Below are positions 6,671 through 20,031 of a stretch of DNA of 64,000 bases, one piece after another (within the stretch, counting starts at the first letter, position 1; every line of letters begins with the position of its first letter). The stretch covers positions 164 to 64,163 of the forward strand of contig JALHNS010000003.1 of NCBI GenBank assembly GCA_022843445.1, given 5' to 3'. The notes below the pieces were generated by a model. The model did not search any database. It was not told where the DNA came from and saw only the letters and a program-made list of their open reading frames with translations. The translations under genes and the position numbers were made by a program. Source of the DNA: Gemmata sp. (GTDB lineage Bacteria; Planctomycetota; Planctomycetia; Gemmatales; Gemmataceae).

Positions 6671-6681
<11 letters not shown>
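5485..6681 (-). CDS. hsdS: Type I restriction enzyme specificity subunit S
   Basis: 398 aa; two TRDs, each followed by the conserved helix (PFPEQKRISATL...KAALMQQLL; PSVEEQKAIAAVL...KKGLMQQLLTG); overlaps the hsdM stop. Confidence 0.95.
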
Positions 6682-8173
<1,492 letters not shown>

Positions 8174-8829
8174 CGCCTGACGACCTCGCGGCGGATTTCC
8201 GCAACTCGGAAGTTGTACCCGCCCCCGCCCCACCTGCAAGCTCGGTTGCCGTGGCCCGAACCGCCTCGCGCCGGCGGGCCGGACGAATCCGAGCGCACCC
8301 TGGCGTGGCCGTCGAGGGGTCCGGCGATTTTTTCGGCCGCGCGATTTTGGGAAAGCGCCAGCCTCCACTCCCTGCATGCGGCGTGTGGTTGGCACGAAAA
8401 AAGAAACACGAAGTGTGAAACCGAAGTAGTCTGGGCAGTGAAGTTATTAGGGGTTGCGCGATCCGATTTCCGAGATGTTAAGAATGTTGCGGGCGGCAAG
8501 CAAAGCGAGTAGCTCAAGTAATAGCGGAGACGCCCACCGAACTCCCAATCGGCACCGACACGACCGGATAATAACGCGGCAGCGACTTGCTTTTCTAGGC
8601 GATTGTGGATACTCGCGGCGTGAGGCGGCACGGATACACACGAACTGCCGCGTGGGGCTATTATTCCGCAAGGCAGATCGCGCCGGCTGCGGATCGGAGG
8701 ATGCAATCCAGCCGGACGCCGCGTCGTCCTACACTGCTTTCCTGCGAATCACCCCGTCCACGCAGTTTTCCTTGACAAGCCGTTCCGGTTCTGCCGATTG
8801 AGCCGTCATCTGTCTACGTGGAGTGATTC

Positions 8830-10293
8830 ATGTCGGGGTCCGCGTTGCGCCCTTCGACGTTCGTTGCTGCGGTCTGCTTGGCCGTGTGCGGGTGCGCGAC
8901 GGGCGTTGTGACGCCGGGGCCATCTTCGTGGACACCCACGCCCGGTCCTGCTGTCTCTCGCACGGAACCGCCAGGAGTTGCACGCATTCGGCCAGACGCG
9001 CCGATTCAGCGGGCCTCCTTTGAACGGCCGGCTCCCGATGTCCCGACCGGCCCGGTTGCGCCTCAGCCCATTGCACCCGTCGGTGTTGATGACTTCGTTC
9101 GGCTGGCGGTCGAGCGGAACCCACGGCTCGCGCGGGCCAATCTCGCTATCGAGGCGGCAAGGGGCCGACAACTCCAGGCTGGCCTGTACCCGAACCCCGA
9201 AGTCGCGATCAACTGGGACGAAATTGGGGACCGATCCAGCCCCGACCGCCTCGGTATCCTGACCGCCCCGAAGGTTTCGCAGACCATCGTGACGGGCCGC
9301 AAACTCACACTCGCGCAGGCGGTCGCGGCGCGGGAGGTCGATCAAGCGGCCCTCGAACTCCTCTCCGAACGGTACGCGGTCGTCGGGTCGGTTCGCACTG
9401 CGTTCTACGAGACGCTGGCCCTCCAGCAGCGGGCCGACATCCTTGCCGAGTTGGTGAAGATCGCGGATGAAGCGGTCGCCAACGGTAAGACACTGCTCGA
9501 TGCCCAGCGCATCGCCAAGCTGGACTTCATCCAACTTGAAGTGGAACGCGAGCGATTCCGCGCCGAGCTTCAATCGGTGAAACGCGAATTACCCGGTTCG
9601 TACCGGCGGCTGGCCGCTGTCGCGGGCAACCACGCAACGATCCCCGCCGCCGTGTCGGGCGCATTCGACGGTTTGCCCGACTACGACCCCGACGCGGTGC
9701 GCGAGGCCGTCCTGACCTTCCACCCGCAGGTGCGTTCGGCACGGGTCGGGGTCGAGCGGGCGCAGGCGGCGGTGAAGCGCGCCCAGGCCGATCCGATTCC
9801 CAACGTGTCCGTATACGCCGGGTACATCCGACAATTCGAGAACCGCTCTCACGACGGCGCGGTGGGGGTGTCGATGCCCGTGCCGGTCTGGAACCGCAAC
9901 CAGGGGAACATTCGCGCGGCCCAGGCCGAACTGGGCATGGCGATCCAGTCGGTCGGCCAGACCGAGAATGAACTGGCTGCTCGTGTCGCCATCGCGTACC
10001 AGACCTACGCCGCCGCCCGCGAACGGGCCGAGATGTACCGTAAGGAACTGATCCCGCGAGCCGAGGAGACGTACAAGCTCTCACTGGCCGCGTTCAAGGG
10101 CGGGCAATTTGAATACCTGCGCGTCATTGCCGCGCAGCGTGCCGTGGCCGAAGCCCGGCTTGAGTTGAACAAGTCGCTCGGTGAGGCGTGGCGTGCCGCC
10201 GCCGAACTCTCCGGCCTCTTGCTCGAAGAGTCGTGGCCGTTCCAACAACGCGGGCCGGTTATGGTGCCTCCTCCGACGCCATCGCCGAAGTAA
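8830..10293 (+). CDS. TolC/CzcC-family outer membrane efflux protein
   Basis: Lipoprotein-like signal (LAVCGC), two OEP repeats (LQAGLYPNP; ADPIPNV...VPVWNRNQGNI); first gene of the RND cluster. Confidence 0.92.
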   Translation: MSGSALRPSTFVAAVCLAVCGCATGVVTPGPSSWTPTPGPAVSRTEPPGVARIRPDAPIQRASFERPAPDVPTGPVAPQPIAPVGVDDFVRLAVERNPRLARANLAIEAARGRQLQAGLYPNPEVAINWDEIGDRSSPDRLGILTAPKVSQTIVTGRKLTLAQAVAAREVDQAALELLSERYAVVGSVRTAFYETLALQQRADILAELVKIADEAVANGKTLLDAQRIAKLDFIQLEVERERFRAELQSVKRELPGSYRRLAAVAGNHATIPAAVSGAFDGLPDYDPDAVREAVLTFHPQVRSARVGVERAQAAVKRAQADPIPNVSVYAGYIRQFENRSHDGAVGVSMPVPVWNRNQGNIRAAQAELGMAIQSVGQTENELAARVAIAYQTYAAARERAEMYRKELIPRAEETYKLSLAAFKGGQFEYLRVIAAQRAVAEARLELNKSLGEAWRAAAELSGLLLEESWPFQQRGPVMVPPPTPSPK

Positions 10294-10374
10294 TTCCGGC
10301 TGCCGAACTTGGTGGTCTGGTTGACTTTAGCCGCTTTCCGGCGAAGATGGTCGAGAGCGGGGTACTTTCGACCG

Positions 10375-10758
10375 ATGACGATCCGCCTGCTACTCCCGGT
10401 CTTTCTCGTTCTGCTCCAGTCGGGGTTGGCGGTCGCGCACGCACACAACCACGCGAACCTCGCGAGCCACACACAGACCCCACACCTCCACGTTCACGAC
10501 CTGTTCGATTTGTTCGAGTCGGATCACGACGACGAAGACGGCGACGACCACGATACCGACGCCGTGGACGTGTCGGACATGGCGCTATCGGCAGCCCCGC
10601 CGCCCGCTGTTGATGCGGTCCTTTTCGACCTCGCAACCGTGACTCTGGAGCCGGCGTTCGGCGCAATCGCCGAGCTGTCGTTCCCTGTCGGGTTGCCACC
10701 GTCTACCGCCGGGCCGCACCGCCCGCTCTACTTGATCCTCTGCACGCTCACGATTTAA
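10375..10758 (+). CDS. His/Asp-rich exported protein (CzcI-like accessory)
   Basis: Signal peptide followed by AHAHNH...HTQTPHLHVHD...DHDDEDGDDHDTD; C-terminal PP..GP motif; lies between czcC-like and czcB-like genes. Confidence 0.7.
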   Translation: MTIRLLLPVFLVLLQSGLAVAHAHNHANLASHTQTPHLHVHDLFDLFESDHDDEDGDDHDTDAVDVSDMALSAAPPPAVDAVLFDLATVTLEPAFGAIAELSFPVGLPPSTAGPHRPLYLILCTLTI

Positions 10759-10917
10759 CCCGTCTCCGGGCCGGACCCGGTGCGGGTCGCGTCGCGCGCC
10801 GACGCACGTCCGCACCACATCTTTCCGGTCCCTTCTGCCTGACCCACGTCCCTTCATGACGCCGGGTTGCAGTACCACCGCCCCGTTTGCTCGTGGCCCG
10901 CCGTGCCGAGGTGCCTC

Positions 10918-12318
10918 ATGCGCTGGCGTTCGACTCTCCGCAATCTCGCGGTACTGCTCGCCCTCGCCGGCGTCGGCTTCGGCGCGTGGACGCAGCGGCA
11001 CCGCTTCCAGAAAGCCGACGCGCCCGAACCGACCGCGAGCGGCGGCTCCGGCCCGGTGGACATCCAGAGTGTGAAGCTCAGTGATGAAGCGGTGCGCGGA
11101 CTCGATCTTCGCAGCGAGGAGGTCCGGCTCGAAGATTATCCGAAGGTCATCGAAGTGCCGGGCGTTCTCACCGATGCGCCGGGCCGCGTGCGGGCGGTGA
11201 CCGTGCCGGCGGCCGGGATCGTCGCGAAGGTCCACGTCGCCCCCGGCGAGGCCGTCCGGCCCGGCGATCCGCTGTTCACGATTCAACTCGCCAGCGAGTT
11301 CGTGCAGAACACGCAAACCGAACTCGCACGGTCGGCCAAAGACCTCGTTGCCGCCATCACGAAGCGCGATCAGACGAAGAAGCTCGTCGAGACGGGAACC
11401 AAGCCGGGGTTCGAGCTTGTCGAGGAGGAAAACCTCGTGCGGCGACTGACTTCGCAGGTTGAGGGTAACCGGCGGCAGTTGCGCCTGTTCGGGTTGTCAC
11501 CCGACCAAGTGAAGAAGGCCGAGGCCGGAGATGCGGTCACGGAGATCGTGATCGCCGTGCCGACCGCCAATCCACCGGCCGCGCCGATGCACGTCGGCGT
11601 GCGGAGCGGCCCCGTTCCCGATGAACCGATCTTGTTCGCCTTCGAGATCGAGTCGCTTGCGGTCGCCCAGGGTCAGGGCGTCACCGCCGGCCAGCACCTC
11701 GCGCGACTGGCCGACTACCGCGAACTCTTCATCGAAGGGCAGGCGTTCGAGTCCGAAGCCGGGTTGGTCGCGGATGCCACCAGCGTCGGCCGGCCCGTTG
11801 GCGTGGACTTTCTGGAGCCACCGGCGAAAGGGAAACCGGCCACCGAAACGAAGCTCGTGATTCGGTCGGTGGGCAAGACCGATCCGACCACGCGCACGTT
11901 CCCCTTCTACGCCGCGCTTGCTAACGAGGTGAAGCCCTACGAGCGCGAGGGAAAGACGTACCTCGCGTGGCGCTACCGCCCCGGTCGTCAGGTCCGGCTC
12001 CGCATCCCCACCGGCACAATCCCGAAGGTCATCGTGTTGCCGGCCGAGGCGGTCGTGCGAGAGGGGCCGGACACCTTTGTGTTTCGTCAGAATGGCGAAG
12101 TGTACGACCGCAAGCCCGTGGTCATCGTTGCCGAGGACCGGCTGAACGTGGCGATTGCCCCCGGTAACGGGATCGAGTCCGGGGTGTCGGTTCTGCGGAA
12201 CAACGCGGCGGCGGTCAACCGCGCGCTGAAGGCACTCCAAGCGCGCGGGTTCGGCGGCACCGGCGGCAAGAAGGGTCACTGGCACGCCGATGGTTCGTTC
12301 CACGAAGAGAAGGACTGA
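10918..12318 (+). CDS. RND efflux periplasmic adaptor (CzcB/CusB-like)
   Basis: N-terminal TM anchor, biotinyl-lipoyl halves (VHVAPGEAVRPGDPL; VAQGQGVTAGQHL), C-terminal LPAEAVVREG; start chosen after GAGGT. Confidence 0.9.
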   Translation: MRWRSTLRNLAVLLALAGVGFGAWTQRHRFQKADAPEPTASGGSGPVDIQSVKLSDEAVRGLDLRSEEVRLEDYPKVIEVPGVLTDAPGRVRAVTVPAAGIVAKVHVAPGEAVRPGDPLFTIQLASEFVQNTQTELARSAKDLVAAITKRDQTKKLVETGTKPGFELVEEENLVRRLTSQVEGNRRQLRLFGLSPDQVKKAEAGDAVTEIVIAVPTANPPAAPMHVGVRSGPVPDEPILFAFEIESLAVAQGQGVTAGQHLARLADYRELFIEGQAFESEAGLVADATSVGRPVGVDFLEPPAKGKPATETKLVIRSVGKTDPTTRTFPFYAALANEVKPYEREGKTYLAWRYRPGRQVRLRIPTGTIPKVIVLPAEAVVREGPDTFVFRQNGEVYDRKPVVIVAEDRLNVAIAPGNGIESGVSVLRNNAAAVNRALKALQARGFGGTGGKKGHWHADGSFHEEKD

Positions 12319-12321
12319 GCC

Positions 12322-15300
12322 ATGCTCGACGCCGTGATCCGTGCCGCGCTCCGTTACCGCGCCCTCGTGGTATTGGCCGCGCTCGCGGTCTTGCTGTACG
12401 GGACGTATCAGGCCACAACGATGCCCATCGATGTGCTGCCCGACCTCGACCGGCCGCGCGTGGTGCTGCTCGTCGAATGTCCCGGCCTCGCTCCCAACGA
12501 GGTCGAGACGCGGGTCGCCCACCCCATTGAAACCGCAATCCTCGGTGCCAACGGCGTCGAGGCGGTGCGCGGGCAGTGTACCGCCGGCCTTGCGGTCATC
12601 TACGTCGAGTTCGGCTGGCAGGTGGACGTGCGTGCCGCCCGACAGACCGTACAGGAGCGACTCGCCACGGTCGCCAATCAGATGCCGCCCGGCGTGCGCC
12701 CGGAGATGACGCCGACCAGTTCGATCATGGGACAGATCATGCACGTCGGGGTCACGTCGAAGGACGGTACGACCAAGCCGACGGAGTTGGGTACGCTCAC
12801 CCACACCGTCATCCGCCCGCGCCTGCTGAAGATCCCCGGCGTGGCCGAGGTGATCGTCCTGGGCGGGGAGAAGAAGCAGTACCAAGTTCTTCTGAACCCC
12901 GACGCACTCCGCAAGTTCGGGGTCACCGTACCGGAAGTGGAAGCGGCTCTCCGCGCGAGCAACGCCAACACGACCGGCGGCTTCGACGTGCGCGGCGACG
13001 CGGAGCGGCCGATTCGCGTGATCGCCCAACTCGGTCCCGACCCAACGAAGGTGATCGCCGACCTCAACCAAGTGGTGGTGAAGCCGCCCCCGCCGCGCCC
13101 GCCCGCTCGCGACGATGGCAAGGACGGCTCATCCGGCACCGCTGGCGTGACGGGGCGGCCGATTCTCCTACACCAAGTCGCGCGCGTCGTGGAAGGGCCG
13201 GAGTTCAAGCGCGGCGACGCAAGCGTGGACGGCGCTTCCGGTGTTGTCATCACGGTCGTGAAACAACCGCACGCCGACACCCGCGCGCTGACCGCCGAAG
13301 TCCATGCGGCACTGCGGGAACTGGAGCCGGGCTTCCCGAAGGACGTGGTGGTGAACCACGAGTTGTTTCAACTCAAGAACTTCATCGACCGGGGCGTTTA
13401 CAACGTCGGCGAGGCGCTCGTCCTCGGCGCGGTCCTCGTGCTGATCGTGCTGACGCTGTTCCTGATGAACCTGCGCACCACGTTCATCTCGCTAACGGCG
13501 ATCCCGCTCTCGCTGGCCGTCACCGTCATCGTCTTCAAGATCGTCGGCCGGATGACCGGCGTCGAACTGTCCATCAACGTGATGACGCTCGGCGGGATCG
13601 CGGTCGCGATGGGTGAACTGGTCGATGACGCGATTGTCGATGTCGAGAACATCTTCCGCCGGCTGCGCGAGAACAACCACGCGGCCGGACCCCGGCACCC
13701 GCTGCGCGTGGTCTACGAAGCCAGCCGGGAGATCCGATCCGCCATCGTCTTCGGCACCCTTGTCGTTGTGCTGGTGTTCCTGCCGCTGTTCGCACTCTCC
13801 GGCGTCGAAGGGCGGCTGTTCGCCCCGCTCGGTTTCGCGTACATCGTGTCGATCTTGGCCTCGCTTCTGGTGTCCGTGACCGTCACGCCGGTGGCGTCGT
13901 ACTACTTGCTCGCCAACTCCCACGCCGTCCACGCCGAACGTGACGGGCCGCTCCTCCGTTTGTTGAAGTTCCTCGCCGGACCGCTCATCCGGTTCAGCAT
14001 GGCGCACCCAGTTCCACTTCTGGCCCTCACTTGGGTCGTGGTGGGTGTCGCCGGCTGGCAGGTCACACGCCTGGGGGCGGACTTCTTGCCGCCGTTCGAT
14101 GAGGGGAGCGTGCAAGTGAACGTCACACTGCCGGCCGGTTCGTCGCTCGAAGCATCGAACAAGATGTGCCGCGTGGTCGATGCCCGGTTGAAGGAACTGC
14201 AAAGGACCGACAAGGAGCCGAAGAAGCCGGTGCTGCATTTCGCCCGCCGAACGGGTCGCGCCGAACGCGACGAACACGCGCAGGCGGTGACCGCGACCGA
14301 GTACCTCTTGAGCATGAACCCGGAGTCCGGGCTGACTCGCGAGGAAGCCATCAAGTTGATTCTCGCCGACCTGAAGGACGCGGCGGCGGGCGCGGACGTG
14401 GAGGCCGAGCAACCGCTCCAGCACCTCATCAGCCACATGGTGTCCGGGGTGTACGCGCAGATCGCGATCAAGATTTACGGCGACGACCTCGACGTGCTGC
14501 GCCGCGAGGCCGAGCGGGTGAAGACCGCGATCAGCGATATTCCGGGCGTCACCACGCCCGTCGTCGAAGCGCAACAGTCCACGGGCGAAGTTCACATCTG
14601 GTTGCGCCCGGCCGACCTCGCGTTCCACGGCCTCACGCGCGACGAAGTGGCGTCGGTTGTGAGGACGGCCCTCCAGGGCGAAGAGATTTCACAGGTGATC
14701 GACGGCCCGAAGCGATTCGACCTGATCGTGCGGCTCGATGACCCGTTCCGCACCGACCTGCCGAAGCTCGGCCAACTGCGCATCGAGCGGCCGGGCCAGA
14801 AGCCGGTCCTGCTCGGCGAGGTGGCAGACATCGGCGAAGGTTTGGGGCCGAACGCGGTCAACCGCGAGAACGTCCGGCGGCGGATCATCGTGCGGTGCAA
14901 CGTGCAGGACCGCGACCTGGCCTCGGCCGTCGCCGACATCCAGAAGCGCGTGGACGAGCGCGTGAAGCCCCGGCTCCCGCCGAATTACGAGATCGACTAC
15001 GGGGGCCAGTTCGAGAGCCAGCAGCGCGCCACGCGGCTGATCGTCGCTCTGGCGGGCGTGTCGGTCGTTGGCATGTTCGCGGTGCTGCTGGTGCTGTTCC
15101 CGTCGTGGCGGATCGTGCTTCAGATTCTGAACGCCCTGCCCACCGCCTTCATCGGCGGCGTGCTGGCGCTGGTGCTGACGAACCAGACGCTCACGGTCGC
15201 GAGTCTCGTGGGTTTCATCTCGCTCGGCGGGATCGCGGTGCGCAACGGCATCCTGCTCGTTTCCCACTATGCCCACCTGATGCGCGAGGAGAGCGAGAGC

Positions 15301-15612
15301 TTCACAAAAGACATGGTGCTGCGCGGCAGCCTGGAGCGGCTCTCTCCGGTGCTAATGACCGCGCTAACGGCGGGCATCGCGCTCGTGCCGCTGGTGGTTG
15401 AGGGATTGAAGCCGGGTCGCGAAATCCTCTACCCGGTGGCGACTGTGATTCTGGGTGGCCTCATCACCAGCACCTTCTGCGAGTTCTTGATCCACCCCGG
15501 CCTGTTCTGGCGGTTCAGCGGGAAAGACGCCGAACGCCTCGCCAGGACCGGGCCGGGTGACGACCCGCTTGCGGACGTTCCGCCGGCGAACACCCCTGCG
15601 GCCGGGAAGTGA
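12322..15612 (+). CDS. Heavy-metal efflux RND transporter (CzcA/CusA family)
   Basis: 1096 aa; PIDVLPDL, GELVDDAIVDVEN, FLPPFDEG, RTGRAERDEHA, RNGILLVSHY, ERLSPVLMTAL. Confidence 0.95.
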   Translation: MLDAVIRAALRYRALVVLAALAVLLYGTYQATTMPIDVLPDLDRPRVVLLVECPGLAPNEVETRVAHPIETAILGANGVEAVRGQCTAGLAVIYVEFGWQVDVRAARQTVQERLATVANQMPPGVRPEMTPTSSIMGQIMHVGVTSKDGTTKPTELGTLTHTVIRPRLLKIPGVAEVIVLGGEKKQYQVLLNPDALRKFGVTVPEVEAALRASNANTTGGFDVRGDAERPIRVIAQLGPDPTKVIADLNQVVVKPPPPRPPARDDGKDGSSGTAGVTGRPILLHQVARVVEGPEFKRGDASVDGASGVVITVVKQPHADTRALTAEVHAALRELEPGFPKDVVVNHELFQLKNFIDRGVYNVGEALVLGAVLVLIVLTLFLMNLRTTFISLTAIPLSLAVTVIVFKIVGRMTGVELSINVMTLGGIAVAMGELVDDAIVDVENIFRRLRENNHAAGPRHPLRVVYEASREIRSAIVFGTLVVVLVFLPLFALSGVEGRLFAPLGFAYIVSILASLLVSVTVTPVASYYLLANSHAVHAERDGPLLRLLKFLAGPLIRFSMAHPVPLLALTWVVVGVAGWQVTRLGADFLPPFDEGSVQVNVTLPAGSSLEASNKMCRVVDARLKELQRTDKEPKKPVLHFARRTGRAERDEHAQAVTATEYLLSMNPESGLTREEAIKLILADLKDAAAGADVEAEQPLQHLISHMVSGVYAQIAIKIYGDDLDVLRREAERVKTAISDIPGVTTPVVEAQQSTGEVHIWLRPADLAFHGLTRDEVASVVRTALQGEEISQVIDGPKRFDLIVRLDDPFRTDLPKLGQLRIERPGQKPVLLGEVADIGEGLGPNAVNRENVRRRIIVRCNVQDRDLASAVADIQKRVDERVKPRLPPNYEIDYGGQFESQQRATRLIVALAGVSVVGMFAVLLVLFPSWRIVLQILNALPTAFIGGVLALVLTNQTLTVASLVGFISLGGIAVRNGILLVSHYAHLMREESESFTKDMVLRGSLERLSPVLMTALTAGIALVPLVVEGLKPGREILYPVATVILGGLITSTFCEFLIHPGLFWRFSGKDAERLARTGPGDDPLADVPPANTPAAGK

Positions 15613-15651
15613 GGCCGCTCATGATGACTGTTCTTTCCCCGGAGGTTTCCG

Positions 15652-16131
15652 ATGAACTGGAAGACGCTGGCTACGGTCGTACTCGGCCTGGGGCTGATCT
15701 GGGCGACCGGCTGCGACAACAAGAAGGACGCCACCACTCCGAAGCCGGACCCGAAGAAGGACGAGGACCACGCGCACGGGAACGGGCCGCACGGCGGTGT
15801 GGTGTTCGACTTCGGCGGCGGCAAGTACCACGGCGAGTTCAAGCCGAGTCACCCGGACAAGAACGCGACCGTGTGGATTCTCGGCGCGGACGAGAAGACG
15901 GCCGCGCCGATCAAGGCCGAGAAGCTGAAGCTGGTGGTGTCGAACACGACCCCGAAGATCGAGATCGAACTGCTCCCGACAGACAAGGACAAGGACGGGA
16001 AGGCGTCCACCTTCACCGGCAAGGACAACGGGTTCGGCGTCGAGATGGAGTACAAGGGGACGGTCACCTTCACCATCGACGGCAAGCAGTACAGCGGCGA
16101 CTTCGAGGAGAAGCCGGAGCCGAAGAAGTGA
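15652..16131 (+). CDS. Putative metal-binding lipoprotein (HxHGxGPHGG type)
   Basis: Lipobox ATGC, then DHAHGNGPHGG and a YHGE motif; GGAGG upstream. Confidence 0.8.
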   Translation: MNWKTLATVVLGLGLIWATGCDNKKDATTPKPDPKKDEDHAHGNGPHGGVVFDFGGGKYHGEFKPSHPDKNATVWILGADEKTAAPIKAEKLKLVVSNTTPKIEIELLPTDKDKDGKASTFTGKDNGFGVEMEYKGTVTFTIDGKQYSGDFEEKPEPKK

Positions 16132-16143
16132 CGCGCACTCGCG

Positions 16144-16173
16144 ACCCGGCGGTTGCACTACCGACCGCCGGGT
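16144..16173 (+). terminator. Stem-loop after the lipoprotein gene
   Basis: Perfect 10-bp inverted repeat ACCCGGCGGT/ACCGCCGGGT; weak U tract. Confidence 0.45.
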
Positions 16174-16320
16174 GATTTCGACACTGCGGTGACTTCAACG
16201 TGCCGCGTCGCGCCGCCGTGGTGCGCGTTCACGCTCCAAGCGATTTACCCACTTGCCGGGTAGAACCACCCGGCAGTGCATCCGAAATACGGCGTTGACC
16301 GAGGAACCCCGGAAATTCCC

Positions 16321-17340
16321 ATGCACCACATTGAACCGGCACACGAAACCCAATCGCACAACTTTGATCCCGGTAACCCGCTCGGCGAGCGCGGTACACG
16401 GCGGGTCGTACTGCTCACGGCCGCAATGATGGTTGTCGAAATCGTCGCGGGATGGCTGACCAACTCGATGGCGCTCTTGGCCGATGGCTGGCACATGGGA
16501 ACACACGTCGCCGCTCTGGGCATCGCGGCGTTCGCGTACTGGTACGCCCGCAAGCACGCGAACGATCCGCGATTCGCCTTCGGAACGTGGAAGGTGGGGG
16601 TGCTGGCCGGGTACGCCAGCGCCGTTGTGCTTGGATTGGTCGCGGTTTACATGGTCTACGAGTCGGTCGCTCGCGTGCTGAATCCGGTGCCGATCCGCTA
16701 CGGCGACGCGATCTTGGTCGCGGTCGTCGGGCTGGCGGTTAACCTCCTGAGCGCGTGGCTCCTGCACGGACACGAGGGGCATCACGATCACGGACACTCG
16801 CACGGCGGCGACCACGTTCAGGGCCACGGACACGACTTAAACCTGCGGGCCGCGTACTTGCACGTCTTGGCCGATGCCCTCACCTCGGTGCTGGCAATCG
16901 TGGCGCTGCTCGGCGGCCAGTTCTTTGGATGGGACTTCCTCGATCCGGTAATGGGAATCGTCGGCGCGGTGGTCATCAGTGTTTGGGCGGTGGGCTTGGT
17001 GCGGCAGACGAGCCGAGTGCTTCTCGACCGCGAGATGGACGCGCCTGTGGTTCAGGAAATCCGCGAGGCTCTCGCGGATGGTGACGCGGTGATCACGGAC
17101 CTACACGTTTGGCGTGTGGGGCCGGGGAAGTTCGCGTGCATTGTCGGGTTGGTCGCCGCCGACCCGCTGACCCCAGAAGAGTATAAGCGGCGGCTGGCGA
17201 TCCACGAAGAGCTTGTCCACGTCACCGTCGAAGTCCACCGCTGCCACGGCGACCATCCGCATCCCTGCGGGCCGCCGGTCGGCGAAAGGATGCCCGCGCC
17301 GGGCGAGAGTGACCCCGCCGTTCCGACCACCTGCCTCTAA
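16321..17340 (+). CDS. dmeF: CDF-family Co(II)/Ni(II) efflux transporter
   Basis: SMALLADGWHMGTH, FAFGTWKV, His-rich loop GHHDHGHSHGGDH, NLRAAYLHVLADALTS, DLHVWRVGPG, HVTVEVH. Confidence 0.88.
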   Translation: MHHIEPAHETQSHNFDPGNPLGERGTRRVVLLTAAMMVVEIVAGWLTNSMALLADGWHMGTHVAALGIAAFAYWYARKHANDPRFAFGTWKVGVLAGYASAVVLGLVAVYMVYESVARVLNPVPIRYGDAILVAVVGLAVNLLSAWLLHGHEGHHDHGHSHGGDHVQGHGHDLNLRAAYLHVLADALTSVLAIVALLGGQFFGWDFLDPVMGIVGAVVISVWAVGLVRQTSRVLLDREMDAPVVQEIREALADGDAVITDLHVWRVGPGKFACIVGLVAADPLTPEEYKRRLAIHEELVHVTVEVHRCHGDHPHPCGPPVGERMPAPGESDPAVPTTCL

Positions 17341-17420: not shown

Positions 17421-18150
17421 TCAGGATCGCCGCCACGGGACGATCATTCCAACCTGCCGCCGGTACGCCTCGTAACTGCTGCCGAAGGCGTGCTTCAGGT
17501 CGCGCTCTTCGAGGAAGATCCCGACGAAGATGTAGCCGGTCGTCATCCCGTCGAACAACAGGTGGCCCCACGTCATCGCCGGCGCGGACCAGAAGGCGAT
17601 CAGGAACCCCAACATGATCGGGTGCCGCACGATCTTGTACAGGGCCGGGGCGCGAAACGGCGGCGGGGTGTACGGCCGGCTCTTGGCGTAGAGAACCACC
17701 TGCCGCAGCCCGAACAGGTCGAAGTGGTCGATCAGGAACGTGGAGATCAGCACCAAGAACCAGCCGACACCGAACAGCACCCACGGGATGACGGCGGCGG
17801 GTTGCTCGATCTCCCACACGATCCCCGGCAGCGGACGCCACTGCCAGAACAGCAGGATCAACAACACACTCGTCGCCAAGACGTATGTGCTTCGCTCGAC
17901 GTGCGTCGGCACGAACCGGGTCCACCACCGCTTGAAGGCGGGCCGGGCCATGACGCTGTGCTGGACGGCGAACAGGCCGAGCAGCAGCACGTTCACCGCC
18001 ACGGCCTCGCCCACCGGCACCACCTCCCCGGAGTCAATGGACTTCGGGACGATGAGGTTGCCGACGAACCCGATGGCATACAAGAACGTGCCGAAGAAGA
18101 TCAAGTAACTGAACAGCCCGTAGGACAGCGATAACGCCTTCGTGGTCCGG
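17421..18150 (-). CDS. mddA: Methanethiol S-methyltransferase (MddA/ICMT-family) domain
   Basis: [61 protein letters not shown]. No in-frame ATG/GTG at the expected MddA N-terminus. Confidence 0.85.
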
Positions 18151-18941
18151 CAGGCGTGACCCTCGACCGTGCAGGCCGCGCCGTCGCCGCTGACCGCAGG
18201 TTCGCCGCCCGGTTTGCGGGCCGTGACCAACCCTCCCTGCGTGGTGGACGACGTGACGTAGCCCGTCCACCCGTGGAACGTGGCGTCGGTGAACCCGGCG
18301 CCGGTGAGCATCTGAAGGAGCGACCGCCCCTTGACCGCACCGCCGATTCAGTCGGACCACGCCCCCTTCTTCTCCACCTGCTCGTCCGTCACCGTCTCGT
18401 TCAACAGGATGTCGGCCATCTGGAGCCGGCCACCCGGACGGAGAACCCGGTAGACCTCGGCCAGCACCTTCGGCTTGTCGGTGCAGAGGTTGAACACCCC
18501 GTTCGAGATCACCACGTCCACCGTCCCGTCCCCCGCCGGCAGGCGGTCGGCCTCGCGCTGGTGGAACTCGACGTTGGGGACCGCTGCGGCCACCGCGTTG
18601 TCGGTGGCCTTCTTGACCATCTCGGCGGTCATGTCCACGCCGATCACCCGACCGGACGGCCCGACCTTGCGGGCGGCGAGGATGCTGTCCACCCCGGCCC
18701 CGCAGCCGATGTCCACCACTGTCTCGCCTGGGCGAAGGGCGTGCAGGCCGAGCGGGTTCCCCACCCCGGCGAACGACTCGGTGACGACGGTCGGCAGGGC
18801 GTCGATCTCGGCGGGGTCGTAGCCGAGTTTCTTCGCGCTGGCCGGGCCGTGCGGGTGCCGCTGTGGGGCGGTCGGGTCGGTGGCGACCTTGACGAACCGC
18901 AATCTGATCCTCTCCTTGATCTCGTTCACGTCTTCCGACAC
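17421..18941 (-). CDS. Putative selenoprotein: ArsM-like SAM methyltransferase (Sec at UGA 18350-18348) fused in frame to MddA-type membrane methyltransferase
   Basis: GTG start at 18941 after GGAGGA; [28 protein letters not shown] motifs. The frame continues W-S-D-(TGA)-I-G-G-A...TARKP and then without a stop into the MddA domain. Confidence 0.75.
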
Positions 18942-19038
18942 GGCGACTTCCTCCGACAACGACGGATCACCAGCCCGCACGATAGGTGTGCGGCTCGGAG
19001 GGCGTGAGAGGCGGTGGGTGATACCCCGAAGCGGGGCG

Positions 19039-19053
19039 ATAAGCCGGGCTTAT
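19039..19053. promoter_or_regulatory. LysR-type binding box (T-N11-A palindrome)
   Basis: ATAAG-CCGGG-CTTAT perfect 5-bp arms, ~100 nt upstream of the methyltransferase start; -10-like TATCGT on the minus strand at 18984-18979. Confidence 0.6.
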
Positions 19054-19973
19054 GGGGCCAGATCGGAGACGGGATTGGCGTCGAGGAAGTTCAGGAACAG
19101 CCGGGCCGAGAGCGGCGGCACCCGCCTGCAGTCCTGCACCACGAACATCTCGCGGTCGCAGCGGATGTCCTCGACATCGAGGGCGTGCAGGGTGCCGGAC
19201 CTGATCTCTTTCTGCACGGCGAGGACGGACAGGACGGCCACGCCGACGCCTCGGCTGACGGCCTCCTTGATGGCCTCGTTGCTGCCGAGTTCGAGGGCGA
19301 CCCGCAGTTCCCGGAGCGAGCGCCCGGCCCGGTCCAGCGCCTTCTCGAAGCAGTGCCGCAGACCGGACCCGACCTCCCTCAAGACGAGCGGGTGGGCGGC
19401 GAGTTGGTCAATCGTGGCCGTCGTGTTGCGGCTGAGGGCGTGGCCGGTCGGGGTGACCAGCACCATGCGGTCGGCGGCGAGGAACCGGAACTCCAAGTTC
19501 GGGCTGTCGGCCTTCCGCCCGACCAGCCCGACACTGACTTCGCCCCGCTCCACCTGCCCCAGAACGGCCACGCTGTCGCTCACGGCGGCACGGACCCGGA
19601 CGTGCGGGTGCTTCTGGCCGAACACCGACAACAGGGCCGGGAGCAGGTGTTCACCGGGGACCGAACTGGCCGCGATCTCCAACTCGCCGACGACCGGGTG
19701 TTCGTGGCCGGTGATCTCCTCGCGGGCCTCCCGGTGCAGGCCGAGGATCTTCTGAGCGTAGCCGTACAGCGTCCTTCCGGCCTCGGTCAAGAGAACGCGC
19801 CCGCCCCGCCGGTCGAACAGGCTCTTGTTGAGGGTCTTTTCGAGTGCCTGGATGCGCTGACTGACCGCCGCCTGCGTCAAGCCGAGTGCCTTCGCCGCCC
19901 CCGTGAAGCTGTTCAACTCGGCAGCCTTCGAGAAGGTTTCCAGATGTGGAAGTTGAACGTCTTGGGATTCCAC
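19050..19973 (-). CDS. LysR-family transcriptional regulator (CysL-like)
   Basis: HTH LETFSKAAELNSFTGAAKALGLTQAAVSQRIQALE; IAASSVPGEHLLP; LVLREVGSGLR; ELGSNEAIKEAV. Start re-called at GTG 19973. Confidence 0.92.
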   Translation of the reverse strand: MESQDVQLPHLETFSKAAELNSFTGAAKALGLTQAAVSQRIQALEKTLNKSLFDRRGGRVLLTEAGRTLYGYAQKILGLHREAREEITGHEHPVVGELEIAASSVPGEHLLPALLSVFGQKHPHVRVRAAVSDSVAVLGQVERGEVSVGLVGRKADSPNLEFRFLAADRMVLVTPTGHALSRNTTATIDQLAAHPLVLREVGSGLRHCFEKALDRAGRSLRELRVALELGSNEAIKEAVSRGVGVAVLSVLAVQKEIRSGTLHALDVEDIRCDREMFVVQDCRRVPPLSARLFLNFLDANPVSDLAP

Positions 19974-20031
19974 GACGGCACCGCGATCTACGACCACCGG
20001 CTGTTGGGCAAGGTGGTATTGTAGTCGGCGG

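Follow-up and report, generated by a model that had tools for sequence, protein, structure and literature searches.

When a single TGA interrupts a reading frame, does it end the protein or encode selenocysteine (Sec)? The question is raised by a locus of the planctomycete Gemmata sp. (assembly GCA_022843445.1, contig JALHNS010000003.1), lying in a stretch of 64,000 nucleotides that was analyzed as a whole and is called the window below. Two open reading frames (ORFs) on its minus strand, 18980..18348 and 18311..17421, carry a methyltransferase resembling the arsenite methyltransferase ArsM and a membrane methyltransferase of the MddA type. A preliminary description, made from the letters alone, had taken the two ORFs for one frame split by a single TGA. 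Reading the frame through confirmed this: the ORFs share one frame, the sole in-frame stop inside 18941..17424 is the TGA at 18350–18348, and there is neither a frameshift nor a second internal stop. We put the probability at about 0.85 that the locus encodes a Sec-containing ArsM-like–MddA fusion protein with a single origin from a coupled arsM(Sec)–mddA gene pair. The parts of our explanation, which also includes a relay between the two halves, differ in strength. It is very likely that the TGA is a Sec codon, and the comparative data make a genuine Sec-containing fusion protein highly probable; a sequential two-step methylation pathway is a tentative proposal that we rate somewhat below even odds.

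The likely start codon of the fusion gene is the GTG at 18941, because it falls on the column where two paralogues of this genome have their ATG (MIENPNEIRD and MIETPNEIRD) and because truncated homologues in the databases measure 196–197 residues up to the TGA; an in-frame GTG upstream, at 18980, is a less likely alternative. Counted from 18941, the predicted product has 506 residues and the recoded residue is number 198, in agreement with the length of about 506 residues proposed earlier for a Sec fusion. The 46 residues that follow Sec finish the methyltransferase fold and end in ARKP. They had been described as the remainder of that fold, and we found them to be in frame and conserved as protein.

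We searched 60 related genomes in six frames and found the TGA conserved in nine loci. It is present in fused orthologues of two Gemmata genomes (G001 and G018, the latter a near-complete assembly; 84% identity), in incomplete copies of G013, G023 and G036, and in three paralogous copies within the genome of the window itself (contigs C229/C635 and C139). A scan of metagenomes using the degenerate DNA pattern KG-x-WSD-TGA-[IV]-x-GA matched at least 120 stretches. At least 117 of these are true family members, with about 200 methyltransferase residues before the TGA and a conserved tail of 46–50 residues after it, far more than chance would give. Among 99 distinct sequences, the mean column entropy after the TGA, with the hairpin described below excluded, was 0.55 bits at the first, 0.35 at the second and 1.39 at the third codon position, a pattern from which purifying selection on the protein, and hence translation past the TGA, follows. 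The canonical ArsM proteins of 10 relatives and the ArsM proteins of the PDB have Cys at the TGA column, as do the close full-length homologues P0334 and P0356 (WSDC and WSNC). Homologues hold TGA, and rarely Cys, at this column, as expected if the earlier reading was right. In two full-length members of the Sec-type family, P0328 and P0384, the Sec codon is replaced by Gly (GGA) or Trp (TGG); these forms may be inactive or reflect sequencing errors.

An assembly error does not account for the TGA. Four independent, publicly available runs, from activated carbon (2015), a biofilter (2020) and drinking water (2024), gave contigs that contain no change at 18348–18350, and eight positions between 18332 and 18354 vary among the contigs of independent runs. 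At position 18343 the window has GGC (Gly, giving IGGA) and all four runs contain GCC (Ala, giving IAGA, the family consensus); in two of the four runs GCC is the sole form.

Decoding of UGA as Sec in bacteria involves a Sec insertion sequence (SECIS), and that of Escherichia coli fdhF has a GGUC apical loop in which G23 and U24 contact SelB. An RNAalifold consensus of the 99 distinct sequences predicted a hairpin of this kind in the window. Its stem has seven base pairs (AAGGGGC/GCUCCUU), the apical loop GGUC lies at 18325–18322, and the hairpin begins 18 nucleotides past the U of the UGA (nucleotides 19–36 in the consensus). The consensus GG(A/G)GC-GGUC-GCUCC was exact in 90 of the 99 sequences. 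Third codon positions within the core (GAG/GGG, CGG, UCG and CUC) had an entropy of 0–0.14 bits, against 1.2–1.9 bits in the flanks, and pairing was kept in the rare variants: GGAAC-GGUC-GUUCC, seen twice, GAGGAA-GGUC-UUCCUC, seen once, and G–U wobbles. Positions 18315–18331 were invariant in eight independent contigs. In ten Cys-type ArsM genes of relatives, neither the hairpin nor a GGUC was present at the matching place. The predicted element resembles the fdhF SECIS in its GGUC tetraloop, its G+C-rich stem, a loop about 25 nucleotides after the U and its location inside the coding sequence, and differs from it in that no bulged U is evident. The lower stem of the window-type hairpin is not conserved across the family.

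The genome contains the machinery that such a codon needs. It encodes SelA (464.7 bits), SelB (371.7 bits summed) and SelD (376.8 bits) and has two tRNA-Sec predictions, on contigs C97 and C165; selA, selB, selD and tRNA-Sec, whose absence the preliminary description had named as fatal to its proposal, are all there. The genome also holds a second candidate selenoprotein on the minus strand of contig C88; counted along the reverse strand, its TGA is at position 1154. The candidate is a secreted AhpD/peroxidase-related protein of 424 residues with the motif NDCFY-U-LGHS; it matches the NCBIfam model AhpD_rel_CFYUT below the cut-off, and a hairpin with a GGUC loop occurs 29 nucleotides after its TGA. 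At C34:22432 (plus strand), in a DUF1559-like gene with a prepilin-type N terminus, a TGA replaces the usual Cys of ...SQC.NLKQ.GLA... and a GGUC-loop hairpin follows; the TGA there may likewise encode Sec or may match by chance.

If the TGA were a real stop, the locus would yield a truncated methyltransferase of 197 residues and a separate MddA of 296 residues with an N-terminal extension, begun at the ATG of MLTGAGF. All public gene calls divide the locus in this way, into records of 296 and 196–197 residues, and an in-frame ATG does lie 12 codons past the TGA. However, those 12 codons are conserved as protein, with synonymous variation, and the ATG sits in a conserved LL(Q/E)ML helix that is present also in stand-alone homologues without MddA. 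In the 197-residue product both the active-site column and the 46 C-terminal residues of the fold would be missing, homologues have Cys in place of the TGA, and the synonymous sites that are frozen make up a hairpin at precisely the position predicted for a SECIS. Together these points make a true stop very improbable. The TGA might instead be a nonsense mutation that inactivated an ArsM(Cys)–MddA gene, and decay does occur in the gene family: the MddA of C139 is decayed, and the fused orthologue of G001 (L015/L034) has an extra in-frame TAG at the Glu of VTESF (VT*SF), either a sequencing or assembly error in that metagenome-assembled genome (MAG) or the onset of decay. Against a pseudogene, the same TGA is shared by more than 120 loci, which are spread over deep branches of the family's tree, the coding signature continues after it, the window copy has no frameshift or second stop, and the site is unchanged in independent samples spanning nine years. 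We regard an inactivated gene as scarcely credible, and in practice the comparative data refute it.

A Sec codon at 18350–18348 would join the methyltransferase to an MddA domain that is intact. The MddA equivalog model NF045656 scored 344.2 bits (cut-off 270) over positions 2–238 of 238, the domain scored 346.9 bits in the genome search, and the C-terminal 240 residues share 50–65% identity with MddA proteins that stand alone in Proteobacteria and Actinobacteria. (In the read-through product taken from GTG 18980, P0001, residues 280–515 correspond to 267–502 in the 506-residue numbering.) The lack of an in-frame start at the N terminus of this domain, already suspected from the window, was borne out by the unfused paralogues. 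Where these begin with MTKFLALAYG, the window has no ATG, GTG or TTG; the only codon of this kind from the TGA up to the MddA domain encodes the Met of LLQML, a residue of the methyltransferase fold that stand-alone homologues conserve equally well.

Public annotation hides the fusion. All of the approximately 160 database records listed are cut at the TGA: the best matches to the 520-residue read-through are ORFs of about 296 residues starting with MLxxAGF, and those to the methyltransferase half are ORFs of 196–197 residues ending at WSD. An exhaustive HMMER search over 1.84 billion representatives returned nothing covering both halves in this order. We also looked among the homologues for full-length fusions of a Cys-containing ArsM to MddA and found none. 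Eight candidates were rejected: in the metagenome MddA fusions P0048, P0049, P0053 and P0086 (460–480 residues) the order is reversed, with MddA followed by an unrelated class I methyltransferase, and P0123, P0126, P0185 and P0230 are in fact tandem ArsM duplications. Another MddA homologue, P0106 (384 residues), has a Pfam match to DsbB.

The fused arrangement is not confined to the window. The in-frame order ArsM(Sec)–linker–MddA recurs in G001, in G018 and in at least seven metagenome contigs, six of them spanning most or all of MddA (L119, L167, L176, which has an identical MddA domain, L186, L209 and L213) and one covering it partially (L121); the linker is kept in the fused orthologues. 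The search for further fused copies has thus turned out in favor of the earlier proposal. In C229, C139, G023 and L227 the two genes are unfused neighbors, in which the ArsM stop overlaps the MddA start (…CAATGACAAAG…, ATGA), an arrangement that would couple their translation. The paralogues in the window's own genome are of this kind and occupy two loci, the end of C635 with C229:1–932, and C139:115–1204. The mddA of C229 is intact (350.9 bits) and that of C139 carries a frameshift and is cut short; C635 and C229, which share an overlap of about 150 nucleotides with a single mismatch, probably represent one locus that the assembly broke in two. The fused gene, the adjacent gene of C229 and the decayed one of C139 are the only MddA genes in the genome, and all stand beside a Sec-type ArsM-like gene.

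A maximum likelihood tree built on the methyltransferase domain unites the MddA-linked sequences in a single clade (100/98 support), with the adjacent pairs as the sister of the fused sequences. Two sequences of the fused clade hold linker remnants and have lost MddA. In the fused-clade sequences L171, L216 and L017 (G013) the linker start ARKPGCEPAATS... is kept and MddA is replaced by unrelated sequence; we read the members without MddA as secondary losses of that half. The simplest history consistent with the tree is a coupled adjacent pair, one fusion through loss of the stop and start, and occasional secondary loss of MddA. The MddA partnership appears to be specific to one clade, because 45 of the 55 evaluable Sec-type metagenome loci, among the matches listed, have no MddA within 1.2 kb.

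Features of the fusion locus and its surroundings in the window. Domain limits are in residues counted from GTG 18941.
Feature	Position	Strand	Basis or remark
ArsM-like(Sec)–MddA fusion, predicted complete coding sequence	17421..18941	-	506 residues; terminal TGA 17423–17421; likely start GTG 18941
UGA very likely read as Sec (residue 198)	18348..18350	-	Column of CmArsM Cys224 and human AS3MT Cys206
ArsM-like class I S-adenosylmethionine (SAM) methyltransferase domain, residues 1–244	18210..18941	-	Pfam, NCBIfam, PDB alignment
Linker	18144..18209	-	Stands where unfused gene pairs have the ATGA stop/start overlap
MddA domain, residues 267–506	17424..18143	-	NF045656, Pfam NnrU, hydrophobic segments
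Bacterial SECIS hairpin core (predicted)	18315..18332	-	RNAalifold consensus, 99 distinct sequences
LysR-family regulator, directly upstream	19050..20000 (start approximate)	-	Pfam HTH_1 and LysR_substrate
OEP-HlyD-AcrB efflux system of the heavy-metal resistance-nodulation-division (RND) type, small lipoprotein, CDF cation-efflux gene	8827–17340		Convergent, on the other strand, downstream of the fusion
Type I restriction-modification HsdM methylase	6671–8443		

The N-terminal domain of the protein matches Pfam Methyltransf_31, Methyltransf_25 and Methyltransf_11 (Methyltransf_31 at 1.7e-31; a class I SAM fold with motif I). Its best NCBIfam matches are the models of ArsM-selenoprotein fusions. 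Residues 15–258 of P0001 scored 261 bits against the ArsM/AhpD model NF041537 (cut-off 510), 244 bits against the ArsM/DUF2284 model NF041536 (cut-off 575) and 240 bits against the methyltransferase/UXPK-star model NF047649 (cut-off 460); only positions 6–250 of the models align, and it is the different C-terminal half that keeps the scores far under the cut-offs. PRK11873 (NF008823), the general model for ArsM, gave 207.6 bits, below its cut-off of 263. The best matches among solved structures are the ArsM enzymes 5EVJ, 4FS8 and 4KW7, and the alignment runs through the Sec column. There the TGA falls on the Cys of GECLGGAL, Cys224 of CmArsM, so the placement of the TGA on the As(III)-binding Cys of the W-x-x-C-[IL]-x-G-A motif, proposed from the window alone, agrees with the structures.

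The other cysteines tell a different story. Cys72 of CmArsM (FYGCGS) is Val in the window protein (FAGVGNP) and Cys174 (ISNCVCNL) is Gly (ISNGVFNL); no equivalent of Cys44 was found, the first 70 residues of the window protein containing no Cys. In ArsM, Cys174 binds As(III) together with Cys224, and the first methylation requires Cys44 and Cys72. In the family, Gly occupies the Cys174 column in 77 of 82 members, and 78 of the 82 have a Cys five residues after that column (NLC). The wider family has FCGVGNP in about half of its members and the MddA-linked clade has FAGVGNP. Judged by sequence alignment, then, the domain resembles ArsM and fails the cysteine signature that defines arsenite methyltransferases, and the ArsM-like label of the preliminary description stands for the superfamily and the Sec column only, with the other ArsM cysteines missing and PRK11873 below its cut-off. 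Because Cys72 and Cys174 are replaced and the Cys44 equivalent is absent, arsenite is not a safe guess for the substrate.

Two Cys-type relatives show a similar pattern. MAGs of Pirellulaceae (L035, 748–4774) and Planctomycetaceae (L066, 3210–6071) have an ArsM-like gene with a single Cys (WFRCIGGAL), in whose protein Cys72 is Ala, Cys174 is Gly and only the Cys of the Cys224 column is kept. The gene clusters there with MddA, a NifS-like class V aminotransferase (cysteine desulfurase family), DsrE-like proteins and a DsbB-like protein. A rhodanese domain also belongs to the setting of these clusters and is fused to the methyltransferase in L066. Such surroundings look like a context of sulfane-sulfur or selenium relay and not like an ars operon.

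Combining these observations, we propose the following mechanism. Ribosomes would read the UGA at 18350–18348 as Sec, directed by the GGUC-loop SECIS, and make a single protein of 506 residues. Its N-terminal half would be a soluble SAM methyltransferase in which Sec, at the position of Cys224, is the only active-site chalcogen ligand retained. The selenolate, perhaps with the NLC Cys, would capture sulfane sulfur, selenide or perselenide, or As(III), and the Sec domain would add a first methyl group. The methyl-chalcogenol would then pass to the tethered MddA, where a second methylation could give volatile, non-toxic dimethylsulfide (DMS) or dimethylselenide (DMSe). Because MddA is encoded 3′ of the UGA or, in the unfused pairs, coupled to the upstream stop, it would be made only upon Sec insertion, and its synthesis would therefore be tied to the selenium supply. 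A more specific form of the proposal, selenium-gated volatilization of selenium and sulfur in which a Se–Se or Se–S adduct of Sec198 is methylated and methaneselenol or methanethiol is handed to MddA, we consider unlikely on present data.

The main functional rival accepts the Sec fusion and takes its first half for an ordinary As(III) methyltransferase co-expressed with MddA, the two being independent, co-regulated detoxification functions for arsenic and for sulfide or thiols. The closest structural relatives are indeed ArsM enzymes, JGI labels many homologues as arsenite methyltransferases, a metal/metalloid efflux cluster adjoins the locus, and the wider Sec family often retains two more cysteines near the lost positions. 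The MddA-linked clade, however, has Ala for the cysteine of the Cys72 region and Gly for Cys174, the PRK11873 score is under its cut-off, and the Cys-type relatives cluster with sulfur-relay proteins instead of ars genes; the conserved in-frame fusion and the ATGA coupling of the unfused pairs argue for a physical partnership. We judge an ordinary arsenite methyltransferase rather unlikely.

Several observations weigh against the preferred explanation, a Sec fusion from a coupled pair with a relay between its halves. The count of 45 loci without a nearby MddA, out of 55, implies that the basic function of the family needs no neighboring MddA, and the cysteines of FCGVGNP and NLC in the wider family could still form an As(III) site. 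As MddA alone methylates H2S and methanethiol, a prior enzyme is not obviously needed for sulfur. A cytoplasmic N terminus of MddA is an assumption that hydropathy and the count of positive-inside residues neither supported nor contradicted. The hairpin stem is nearly invariant, true covariation coming from about four of the 99 distinct sequences, and the single-sequence folding energy is no better than that of shuffled sequences (z = +0.83, GC-rich). No SECIS family was matched in Rfam, where the only matches were two sub-threshold small RNA models, taken as chance. As the folding energy is unexceptional and Rfam gave no match, the support for the hairpin is comparative and not thermodynamic. 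Finally, the extra TAG of the G001 orthologue means that some copies are possibly decaying or mis-assembled.

The fusion can be compared with several known systems. ArsM, characterized by the motif UxxG, is one of the recognized families of selenoproteins (Fomenko et al. 2007 Science, as listed in PMC13188914). The window protein shares its superfamily and Sec column, U-I-G-G being a case of UxxG, and differs from it in lacking the other conserved ArsM cysteines and in having a C-terminal membrane MddA. Fusions of ArsM to AhpD, DUF2284 and a UXPK tail have been catalogued (Haft & Tolstoy 2025, cited in PMC13188914). Like those described by NF041537, NF041536 and NF047649, the window protein joins a Sec-bearing ArsM-like domain to a second domain; unlike them, its partner is the polytopic membrane protein MddA and it has a single Sec. 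The alignment to CmArsM (4FS8, 4FSD and 4KW7) over residues 52–221 includes SAM motif I and the Cys224 column, whereas the C-terminal domain of CmArsM is replaced in the window protein by the short tail ending in ARKP. In soils, DMS is considered to arise from H2S and methanethiol mainly through MddA. The enzyme S-methylates H2S and methanethiol, giving DMS (PMC11445057). In contrast to stand-alone MddA, the domain in the window has no start of its own, lies behind a selenoprotein domain and would be translatable only after Sec insertion. In mammals, the SAM methyltransferases TPMT and INMT methylate selenium species in succession (PMC10844679); the likeness is functional only, those proteins being unrelated and separate, and neither being a selenoprotein.

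The literature searched, which did not extend to Haft & Tolstoy 2025, contains no link of MddA to Sec, selenide or ArsM. This fits the preliminary description, in which Sec forms of ArsM were named as reported and a fusion to MddA as not known. ArsM-type selenoproteins, domain fusions included, are thus known, and the MddA partner, the origin from a coupled pair and the membrane-anchored product appear in none of the records and papers searched.

A fusion of this kind would link the methylation cycles of selenium, sulfur and possibly arsenic in one polypeptide of these planctomycetes, and its product would be a membrane-anchored bacterial selenoprotein, an uncommon class. Public counts of mddA and "arsM" mis-annotate genes of the fusion type. 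The fusion also provides a handle on the role of the large Sec-type ArsM-like family, with its at least 117 contigs from soil, peat and water metagenomes. Were the selenium-gated model true, the volatilizing enzyme would be produced only when selenium is plentiful; a detoxification enzyme would then incorporate its own translational sensor of selenium, and soils and water biofilters would harbor a microbial source of DMSe and DMS that had gone unrecognized.

The surroundings of the fusion gene are conserved in one respect. The LysR gene lies upstream in the same orientation in nine related loci and is the probable regulator of the fusion gene. When the neighbors of at least 120 loci were clustered, only LysR recurred in the Gemmata-type group; the remaining neighbors were rejected as antisense shadow ORFs and genes of mobile elements. 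The organism was found in metagenomes of drinking water, activated carbon and biofilters.

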